Positions 28,785 to 31,700 of a DNA stretch of 64,000 bases are shown here, piece after piece. The stretch is taken from contig CM068759.1 of NCBI GenBank assembly GCA_035084275.1, positions 8,618,001 through 8,682,000 on the forward strand, in the 5' to 3' direction. Every line of letters begins with the position of its first letter. Position 1 is the stretch's first letter. This DNA is from Hydrolagus colliei. Its lineage: Eukaryota. A program made the position numbers and the translations under genes. The notes under the pieces are model-generated. The model did not search any database. It was not told where the DNA came from and saw only the letters and a program-made list of their open reading frames with translations.

Positions 28785-31700
28785 ATGTCAGACCAGGTTT
28801 CTGACCTGGAAACTTTTACAAAGATCAAAACATATCGCAGGAAGAAACAAAAAGATGACGAGTCAAATGGGATACCAAAGAAACTGGAGGAAAATGAAAA
28901 CAATGATGCAATCCCCAATTTGGAAACCATGATGGACAGTGAAGTTTTGTCCCATGAAACCACTTTATTTTTAACAAAGACTGAGGAGAACCTAATTGAG
29001 TGCCCAACAGAGCAGGGGCCTTCTGACAAAATGCATATCATCACATTGCAGGTGATAAATATGGATGAACACAGTCAGCCCAGCCTGACTGAGCTGAACT
29101 TGATGACCGTACAACAAGAAGTGATTGAGGTGATTCCTGATGGGCTACAGCAGGAGTTGCAGATCTTCGGTAACAACGGTGAGATCACCCATACTCTGCC
29201 ACTTCCTGAAGGACTACAAGTTATCAAGGTGAGACCTTAAAAGGAGGTGTTAATAGTGTACTATTATTATCTAATATTTTTCAAACTGATTGAGATACTG
29301 GAGGCTTCGCACAACAACAATATCCTATTTAGGTAGTTTTCATGTCAGGAGGACATCGTAAAGAGCTTAACAGAACTACTATGTGTCTGAGCAGGAAGAG
29401 GTAAAGATTCTTACAACTTGGGTGTAGAATTTATATCCTTGCATTTTTTATCTTTATATTTATTTCCTTGTACAGGATTGTAAGATTGCCATGGATTTCA
29501 TGTTACATTATTTTGCAAGAACTTGTAAGAAGCACATCTATGTCTTCACCAAATACGTATTAAGTGACATTAGCAGTAAGATGTGACTTTACTTTTATAT
29601 CTGCACTTTTAATGACTATTCATGGTCCATTTCCTCCATAAATTCTTGTGCAGGTGGGGCCAAATGGAGAATTGCAGCCTGTTGAGGGAGTTGAACTGGG
29701 AGCAGATACGATTGAGACACAGTGTGTTGGTGGAATGGTATGTTCAGACCACAGTTGCCCACTCAAAAAGGATAACTCTATAAAATTTAAATCAGAAGAG
29801 GAGATGGATATGTCTATTTACAACTTTAGTGAGCAAATGGACAGAGTAAAAACAGATGTGCCTGTTGGAAACAATCTTGAACACACTCAACCTCCAGCGG
29901 TTAAAAAGAAAGGTAAATATTCTTTTTGATTTTAAAACATTTTACTGTTTGTTTTTATTGTAATATACTGTACTCCATGATTGACTGCTACAAACTTACA
30001 ATATGATAATCTTTACATTTCATTTAGTACCTTTCATGTTGGGAGGACATATCAAATTGCTTCAAATTGTAGTTACTGAATATTCTGCAGGTGAATGTGG
30101 CAGCCAATTTACAGTAAAAGCCCATTTATCCGACACCCTCAGGACCTGGCCAACGCCGGTTGAAAACGCCAAAAAAATCCACCCAATTTTTTTTCAGTCA
30201 ATGTTTCCGGATAAATTCCGGTTAATCGAATGCGGACCTTTTTTTGCGATGCCGGTTATACGGAAGTTACAATTGATCAGGCGCCGGATAAACAGGCTTT
30301 TACTGTTTACATCCAAGGTCCAACAAACGGCCATTAAATGAATGAACAAATTTATTTGGGGGATTGCTGGCTAGGACAAAGAAAGAAACTTTGATGGATG
30401 GACAAAGAGGAGGATGATGGAAACATCAATAAGATATAAGGCATGCTGTGTTTTTGAGGATAAATGGTTTGCTGCAATTGATTGGTGGGGTCCCATGAAT
30501 AATGCAGGTAACTTGTAGAAATATACACAATTGCCAGGTCATATAGTTGGATGTTAAAGATCTTATGGCACCACTCGAAAACAGAAGGGAGTTTTTCCCA
30601 GTGAATGAAGAGGAGGGAAGAAACCTCAAGGCCCTTTAAATTTTATATTTAAACAATTTCTATTTGTGACAGTGTGAATTCACTGAAATATTCTGCCTTT
30701 TAATTTGTACATTTACTGAATTTGTTTTTCCTTCTTGACAGATATGAAGAAGGCTTTCCAGTGTGAGCTTTGTGCTTATACTTGTCCTCGACTTTCCAAC
30801 CTAGATCGCCACGTGAAAAGTCACACCGATGAGCGGCCACATCAGTGCCATCTTTGCATGAAGGCTTTCCGAACCATCACACTCCTACGCAACCATGTCA
30901 ACACTCATACAGGTGTGTGTATGTGTGAGTACTCATGCTGGTCATTCTGAACTAGTTTTGGATTGTTGCTTTATTTTGTTATTAGAAGAAGAGAAGAGGC
31001 TGTACAAGCCCAGTATTATTTTTGCCATCAGTTCATCACAGTGATAGAGAATGCAGCTGACACAATGACAGTTCCATGTCAATGACAATTCTGTCACTTC
31101 AAGATAAATTATTTACAAAAACACTCGCAATGTGTATTTTCCCAATTAATGCAGGTTTATGTATTGGTAATCTGCATCTGATTAGTACAGATTCACAGAC
31201 ACAGAGAGTCATAGAGACACACACTCAAAGACACACACACTCACAGACACAGAGGGAGGTACACTCACAGATAAAAAGACACTCACAGACCCAGAGAGAG
31301 AGACAAATACAGACAGAGAGAGGGACACTCGCACACACAAACAGACAATCAACAGTTTGGACCTCAGGATGAGCCTGCACTGCTGAAGTGTACCTGAGTC
31401 CCTCCTCCAATATTAGCAGGTGACGCTTACAGGTTTAGCGGAGGGCGCTTGTTTTTAGCTGAGGATGCTTTAAACGGATTCCACTGAAAAATCTTACTTT
31501 TCTATCAGCCTGGGTTATAACACACTCATATTCCTGTAAACTGAACAGCATGAGTTTGATGTAGTTCGCTTACTGTACAGTCCGTATTTGTAAACTACAG
31601 TACTGTTAAATTATTTTGACTTGTTTAAATGGAATTAATGTTGTTGAAATTTATGTAGGCACCAGACCACACAAGTGCTCTGATTGTGATATGGCTTTTG

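Follow-up and report, generated by a model that had tools for sequence, protein, structure and literature searches.

The gene on the forward strand of the window (the whole stretch analysed, 64,000 nucleotides of Hydrolagus colliei contig CM068759.1, positions 8,618,001 to 8,682,000) is, judging from its sequence and neighbourhood, almost certainly the chimaera orthologue of CTCFL/BORIS. The CTCFL family and its early origin are already known; the novelty, on alignment, is a YNF at the position of the YDF of CTCF and a KTYRR at the position of its KTYQR. Since YxF and KTYxR are both kept, chimaera CTCFL likely still grips cohesin, and the interpretation favoured here, at a probability of roughly 55%, is that the protein would bind CTCF sites, dock on cohesin and act as a weaker extrusion barrier, probably in male germ cells.

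Gene Model and Features of the Locus

The model of 11 coding exons encodes 680 aa with 11 zinc fingers, in a frame free of stops and frameshifts (Table 1). From the ATG to the first half of zinc finger 11, all eight exons are bounded by AG/GT and form a single continuous frame; exons 9–11 are predicted from splice signals only. The upstream ATG is a credible start because tarsier, caecilian and newt CTCFL have FTKIK-like starts, to which the ETFTKIK near it corresponds. Exon lengths of 171, 134, 121, 150, 161 and 183 are the same in this gene and in the CTCF gene found on contig C23 of the same genome, and the predicted protein end, TPEMIL, is of the CTCF-family type. Neither the RGRKRK basic tract nor KRRGRP of CTCF is present in the predicted C-terminal exons. 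Pfam returned nothing for either N-terminal exon, and exon 2 had only chance sequence matches in the PDB.

Table 1. Features of the CTCFL locus, in window coordinates
Position	Strand	Feature	Basis or remark
11477..15724	-	PCK1 copy, head to head with CTCFL	Synteny marker
27573..27584	none	Perfect palindrome TGCGCATGCGCA	12-mer occurs once in the window; CpG rise locally
28785..29228	+	Coding exon 1, 148 aa	Direct reading, ATG at 28785
28815..28847	+	11-residue FTK+KTYRR block, KTYRRKK from 28827 (residue 15)	Alignment with CTCF
29034..29069	+	12-residue block, HIITLQV at 29034-29054	Common to 9/9 elasmobranch CTCFL
29190..29671	+	19-residue block, HTLPLPEG at 29190-29213, intron-split	Common to 9/9 elasmobranch CTCFL
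29654..29912	+	Coding exon 2: YxF block plus the greater part of the linker leading to finger 1	
29819..29827	+	YNF (Y204-N205-F206), YxF motif	Alignment
30742..38151	+	Seven exons, 11 zinc fingers	Donor at 38151 a best estimate from splice signals
38446..39326	+	Two predicted C-terminal exons, TPEMIL end	Splice signals only
61284..61652	-	Final coding exon, attributed to RBM38	

Next to the palindrome, 1.2 kb 5' of the ATG, are a G-rich box and, at 27641, a donor-like GTGAGC; the palindrome is presumably an NRF1-type site, and these signals make 27573-27646 a likely promoter with a non-coding first exon. Repeats are also present in the window. A DNA transposon remnant with similar inverted ends lies in intron 4 (about 31880-33840) and contains a BED-finger frame on the minus strand (33003-33458, Pfam zf-BED), a very high-copy repeat occupies about 30090-30380 in the intron 5' of the finger 1 exons, and a LINE remnant with fragmented endonuclease and reverse-transcriptase frames is found on the minus strand at about 17500-20500.

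Orthology to CTCFL and a Separate CTCF

By position and recall, the exon downstream of the gene is taken here to be the last coding exon of RBM38; it had no Pfam or PDB match. RBM38 RRM exons, one of which has RBM38 as its best match, and RAE1 lie just outside the window on the same strand. The gene order is therefore PCK1(-), CTCFL(+), RBM38(-), RAE1(-), with CTCFL tail to tail with RBM38, which is the block known around CTCFL (PMC7471279; PMC2515639). PCK1 itself forms an inverted pair, 2667-6664 (+) and 11477-15724 (-), 99.2% identical over 3.6 kb and open in the exons inspected of both copies; the twin copy matches Pfam PEPCK_GTP (E 2e-52), and the pair is either a recent duplication or an assembly artefact.

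All six protein matches to coding exon 1 are elasmobranch 'CTCF-like' proteins. Searching the 1.0-Gb genome with a finger exon gave one other close match among at least 90, on contig C23 at 90% identity, the next being at 62%. The C23 locus is CTCF: it encodes 721 residues with KTYQRRR and YDFEEE, shares 96.9% identity with Callorhinchus milii CTCF and 89–92% with six shark and skate CTCFs, and is sister to Callorhinchus CTCF in the tree (97/92), which places the genome among the holocephalans.

A tree from the fingers alone, which contained a finger-truncated caecilian isoform, left the window gene unplaced, and the tree was therefore redone with N-terminus and fingers together (21 rows, 515 columns; basking shark, whale shark and Narcine were omitted for mis-annotated fingers, and most teleost CTCFs as redundant). 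In this tree the gene is sister to all six elasmobranch CTCFL proteins at 100/100. A clade of all CTCFL, tetrapods included, has weak support (72/65), and the published tree shows the same (PMC7471279).

The unresolved finger-only tree, together with a top identity to skate CTCF (80%), could be taken to mean that the gene is a chimaera-specific CTCF duplicate, or that its motifs were acquired from CTCF by gene conversion. This is very improbable: AU tests reject grouping with chondrichthyan CTCF (p-AU 9e-67) and with holocephalan CTCF (p-AU 3e-45), the gene order is orthologous to the CTCFL block, and the motif region mismatches C23 CTCF at half of its positions. The N-terminus (about 190 residues) is also nearer to elasmobranch CTCFL, at 44–52% identity to eight of nine proteins and 60% over a shorter stretch to the ninth, than to gnathostome CTCF, at only 29–32%. 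The identification as a CTCFL orthologue made in the earlier note, which named a phylogeny with CTCF and CTCFL as its check, is thus borne out by synteny, by the tree and by the separate CTCF; grouping with CTCF proper in a genome holding no other CTCF is excluded by the AU tests and the C23 gene.

N-Terminal Motifs

Five N-terminal modules of CTCF are listed in a 2026 preprint (bioRxiv 10.64898/2026.10.19.760054): KTYQR, a second PDS5A region at 95-116, a motif at 154-176, YxF and a basic patch. In the chimaera protein, KTYRR aligns with the PDS5/STAG-binding KTYQR of CTCF and is preceded by a 3-residue gap. The second block matches the second reported PDS5A-interacting region of CTCF (human 95-116), and the third, interrupted between GLQVIK and VGPNGE by a phase-0 GT-AG intron (29229-29653), matches CTCF 154-176, which has been predicted in print to touch SMARCA5. 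YNF stands in the same column as the YDF of all seven aligned CTCFs, hagfish among them, and YDF was present in 115/115 CTCF proteins surveyed; the spacing from YNF to finger 1 is 36 residues (40 in CTCF). The four CTCF-type motifs claimed from the first look at the sequence are therefore all present, on the plus strand, in two exons of an intact 11-finger gene, and the proposed cohesin-type YxF does occupy the YDF column. The two middle motifs are not distinctive, being shared by nine of nine elasmobranch CTCFL proteins.

K-x-Y-x-R is absent from 71 of the 115 annotated CTCFs, mostly those of spiny-rayed and related teleosts plus hagfish, while YDF is kept in all. An F-T-K-I-K near the N-terminus is shared by the chimaera protein (28815-28829) and five tetrapod CTCFL proteins, even those without KTYQR, and has its counterparts in FTKVK of chondrichthyan CTCF and YTKVK of hagfish CTCF; no function for it was found described in the accessible portions of the CTCF and CTCFL literature.

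Conservation was compared with chance using C23 CTCF, for motifs fixed in advance and with p values left uncorrected, against the 33/161 (0.20) identity of the N-terminus outside the motifs. The HTLPLPEG block has 16/19 identities (p 5e-9), IITLQVVNMEE 9/11 (p 2e-5) and the FTK+KTYQRRR block 7/10 (p 0.001). DLSVYDFEEE has 5/10 (p 0.036), only modestly above chance as p values are uncorrected; both Y and F would be kept by drift at p 0.042, which suggests selection on YxF. Neither KDPDYQPP (2/8, p 0.51) nor the basic patch (6/15, p 0.07) exceeds the background.

Four of 12 sequence runs from relatives were compared, one of them without coverage of the YNF codons. Among the differences listed for two related organisms, the Y, N and F codons are unchanged, and both organisms read F-R-E-E-Q-V, with one Glu more, as in CTCF. 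In one of these two relatives, 8 of 11 listed coding differences alter a residue, implying that the N-terminus is weakly constrained overall. The constancy of YNF is modest support, because the organisms are close, a further 14 difference rows fell outside the listing, and so many of the listed differences replace residues.

Comparison with Other CTCFL Proteins

YxF is present in none of nine elasmobranch CTCFL proteins (one redundant S. canicula isoform having been removed) and none of 12 tetrapod ones (two of these models having short, possibly cut N-termini). KTYxR is likewise present in 0/9 and 0/12, as judged in sharks and rays from annotated starts at the equivalent of Met49/50. The cloned catshark cDNA is reported to encode the shorter frame (PMC7471279), but two curated shark CTCFL sequences start three codons before that Met and match the window gene there, so annotation may have missed a longer N-terminus bearing KTYxR. 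At the YxF position the elasmobranch proteins have YDC, CEH, CDC, CDY, CNY, HLC, HHC, HHC and CEQ, which reads as a decayed ancestral YxF. Elasmobranch CTCFL otherwise resembles the window gene in its PCK1/RBM38/RAE1 locus, two middle motifs, similar fingers and TPEMIL end, and differs in lacking YxF and KTYxR and in its later annotated start. The middle motifs are thus already known from shark CTCFL, and for catshark they can be made out in the published alignment (PMC7471279).

Mammalian CTCFL/BORIS shares with the window gene its locus, an FTKIK-like start, a TLQ remnant and the C-terminal end motif. It lacks YxF and KTYxR. The description of its N-terminus as unrelated in the earlier note goes too far, as traces resembling FTKIK and ILTLQTV survive there. 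Its fingers 1-2 share about 60% identity with those of CTCF, against 85% in the chimaera.

YDF has been said to be absent from CTCFL orthologues (Kadota et al. 2020, PMC7471279). In the accessible portions of the literature, which included papers on the chimaera genome, lamprey CTCF and bird BORIS as well as PMC12699295 and covered subscription journals thinly, neither a holocephalan CTCFL nor a YxF-bearing CTCFL was found described; for Callorhinchus milii, CTCF alone is given, without CTCFL (PMC7471279). No CTCFL from Callorhinchus, coelacanth, lungfish or ray-finned fishes appeared among the matches listed in word-seeded protein searches (in one, 120 of 385), which does not imply absence, nor among 150 listed representatives, mostly with long finger arrays. 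Thirteen of the 150 were inspected and comprised 11 CTCFL, one CTCF and one frog protein, which was dropped. Although a loss of CTCFL is reported for frogs (PMC7471279), this Pseudophryne protein, named 'zinc finger protein 845-like', contains two blocks of CTCF-like fingers and is possibly a much-changed relative.

Cohesin Contact and Loop-Anchor Features

The YxF of CTCF lodges in a pocket of SA2-SCC1, and the SGO1 peptide SNDAYNFNLEE binds the same complex with a Kd of 13.5 uM and has been crystallised in the pocket (PMC10279526), indicating that N is tolerated at the middle position. SGO1 (PDB 7ZJS) thus shares with the window gene the YNF core and pocket, while being an unrelated protein with unrelated flanks that guards centromeric cohesion instead of anchoring loops. 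Peptides of YDF and KTYQR each hinder loop extrusion in vitro (bioRxiv 10.1101/2025.01.26.634934). The Y226A/F228A substitution is reported to equal loss of the entire CTCF N-terminus, whereas KTYQR recruits PDS5A yet is not required for folding in cells; for BORIS, no PDS5A binding is seen (PMC7645679). In human CTCF, Y226C abolishes loops (bioRxiv 10.64898/2026.10.19.760054). BORIS fails to retain cohesin, but is converted by the CTCF N-terminus with fingers 1-2, two fingers that retention requires, and KDPDYQPP lies within the 79-residue CTCF region required for cohesin retention (PMC6995019). Skate CTCF rescues loops, and invertebrate CTCFs keep YxF but do not anchor them; YxF alone is insufficient for loops. 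The linker from YxF to the fingers also affects loop strength, and that of lancelet weakens loops (bioRxiv 10.64898/2026.10.19.760054).

The window gene resembles vertebrate CTCF in its 11 fingers, exon lengths, KTYxR, both middle motifs and a YxF at near-equal spacing. Its fingers are 81% identical to those of rabbit CTCF, and the recognition residues of fingers 1-9, located by offset from the first His, are identical to CTCF. Fingers 1-2 are 84.6% identical to CTCF, compared with 65–83% in the nine elasmobranch and 58–64% in the 12 tetrapod proteins, making them the most CTCF-like among 22 CTCFL. It differs from CTCF in an additional N-terminal intron, an N-terminal identity of about 30% and a much longer branch, and the segment after finger 7 is unlike that of CTCF. 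Around YxF, the protein has YNF-S-E for YDF-E-E-E, and FSEQMD stands against FEEEQQ with fewer acids; after F+1 there is one Glu here and two in both related organisms. The basic patch before finger 1 has five K/R (net +3) as opposed to eight (net +8) in CTCF, which is below most elasmobranch CTCFL, and KDPDYQPP, kept by CTCF as far as hagfish, is lost.

The genome holds three STAG genes (C18:5.63 Mb, C21:17.07 Mb and C6:28.28 Mb). The SA2 pocket positions Y297, L329, W334, L366, F367 and R370 are recognisable in two of them and the third retains the W334 exon; the C6 copy, the most diverged, is possibly STAG3.

Proposed Function

The proposed mechanism would begin with the fingers binding the CTCF motif, in keeping with their CTCF-identical recognition residues. 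Y204 and F206 would then insert into the STAG-RAD21 pocket, like Y226/F228 of CTCF and Y335/F337 of SGO1, and KTYRR would engage PDS5 or STAG; binding of the YNF peptide to this pocket is judged probable from the sequence. Once docked, the protein would slow cohesin as a partial barrier, which is what is expected given the eroded acidic flank, basic patch and KDPDYQPP, the invertebrate CTCFs that have YxF without loops and the weakening effect of the lancelet linker. Expression may be testis-biased, carried over from catshark CTCFL, for which such a bias is reported (PMC7471279). On a parsimony argument, both motifs would have been present in the CTCFL of the ancestral jawed vertebrate, with YxF decaying independently in elasmobranchs and tetrapods.

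The same erosion could instead signify that the protein is already BORIS-like, binding CTCF sites and acting in germ-cell transcription through its middle motifs, with YNF a slowly decaying leftover that has no hold on cohesin in cells. The YxF block stands at p ~0.04 only, chimaera and sharks both conserve the middle motifs strongly, the C-terminal basic tracts of CTCF are missing, and basking shark CTCFL equals the 5/10 identities of the YxF block with its F absent. This possibility is held tentatively, as two cohesin-related motifs 190 residues apart are retained jointly, the KTY block at p 0.001, the spacing of YxF to finger 1 is near that of CTCF, and the two relatives list no change in YNF while neighbouring codons vary.

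Cohesin binding might also serve some other germline job, such as shielding meiotic or spermatogonial cohesin from WAPL, as SGO1 and sororin do, or contact with STAG3-type cohesin. The YNF core is as in SGO1, KTYxR is similar to the motif by which WAPL, sororin and haspin bind PDS5 (PMC7645679), the testis bias of catshark CTCFL would fit, and the third STAG gene keeps the exon with the pocket tryptophan. The motifs, however, are plainly inherited from CTCF and stand at CTCF positions, and such a job is unlikely.

Under the favoured partial-barrier reading, cohesin docking need not extend to loops, and the loop anchoring suggested in the earlier note is, from the sequence, doubtful for chimaera CTCFL in vivo. 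That it would be a second, germline loop anchor, one that rescues cohesin retention and convergent loops, is an equally speculative extension.

Significance

In the usual view, BORIS is a CTCF paralogue with the DNA targets of CTCF but no hold on cohesin. The presence of YxF and KTYxR in a chimaera CTCFL contradicts the published absence of YDF from CTCFL orthologues, and would place the loss of cohesin contact later than the split of the jawed-vertebrate lineages, a loss that likely took place twice. If loop rescue proved true, the ancestral CTCFL would have been architectural, with cohesin blindness arising once among sharks and rays and once among tetrapods. CTCF, chimaera CTCFL, shark CTCFL and BORIS form a natural series bearing on which N-terminal parts suffice to halt extrusion, for use with the assay in which skate CTCF rescues loops, and within this series the chimaera protein may show the role of BORIS before its grip on cohesin was lost.
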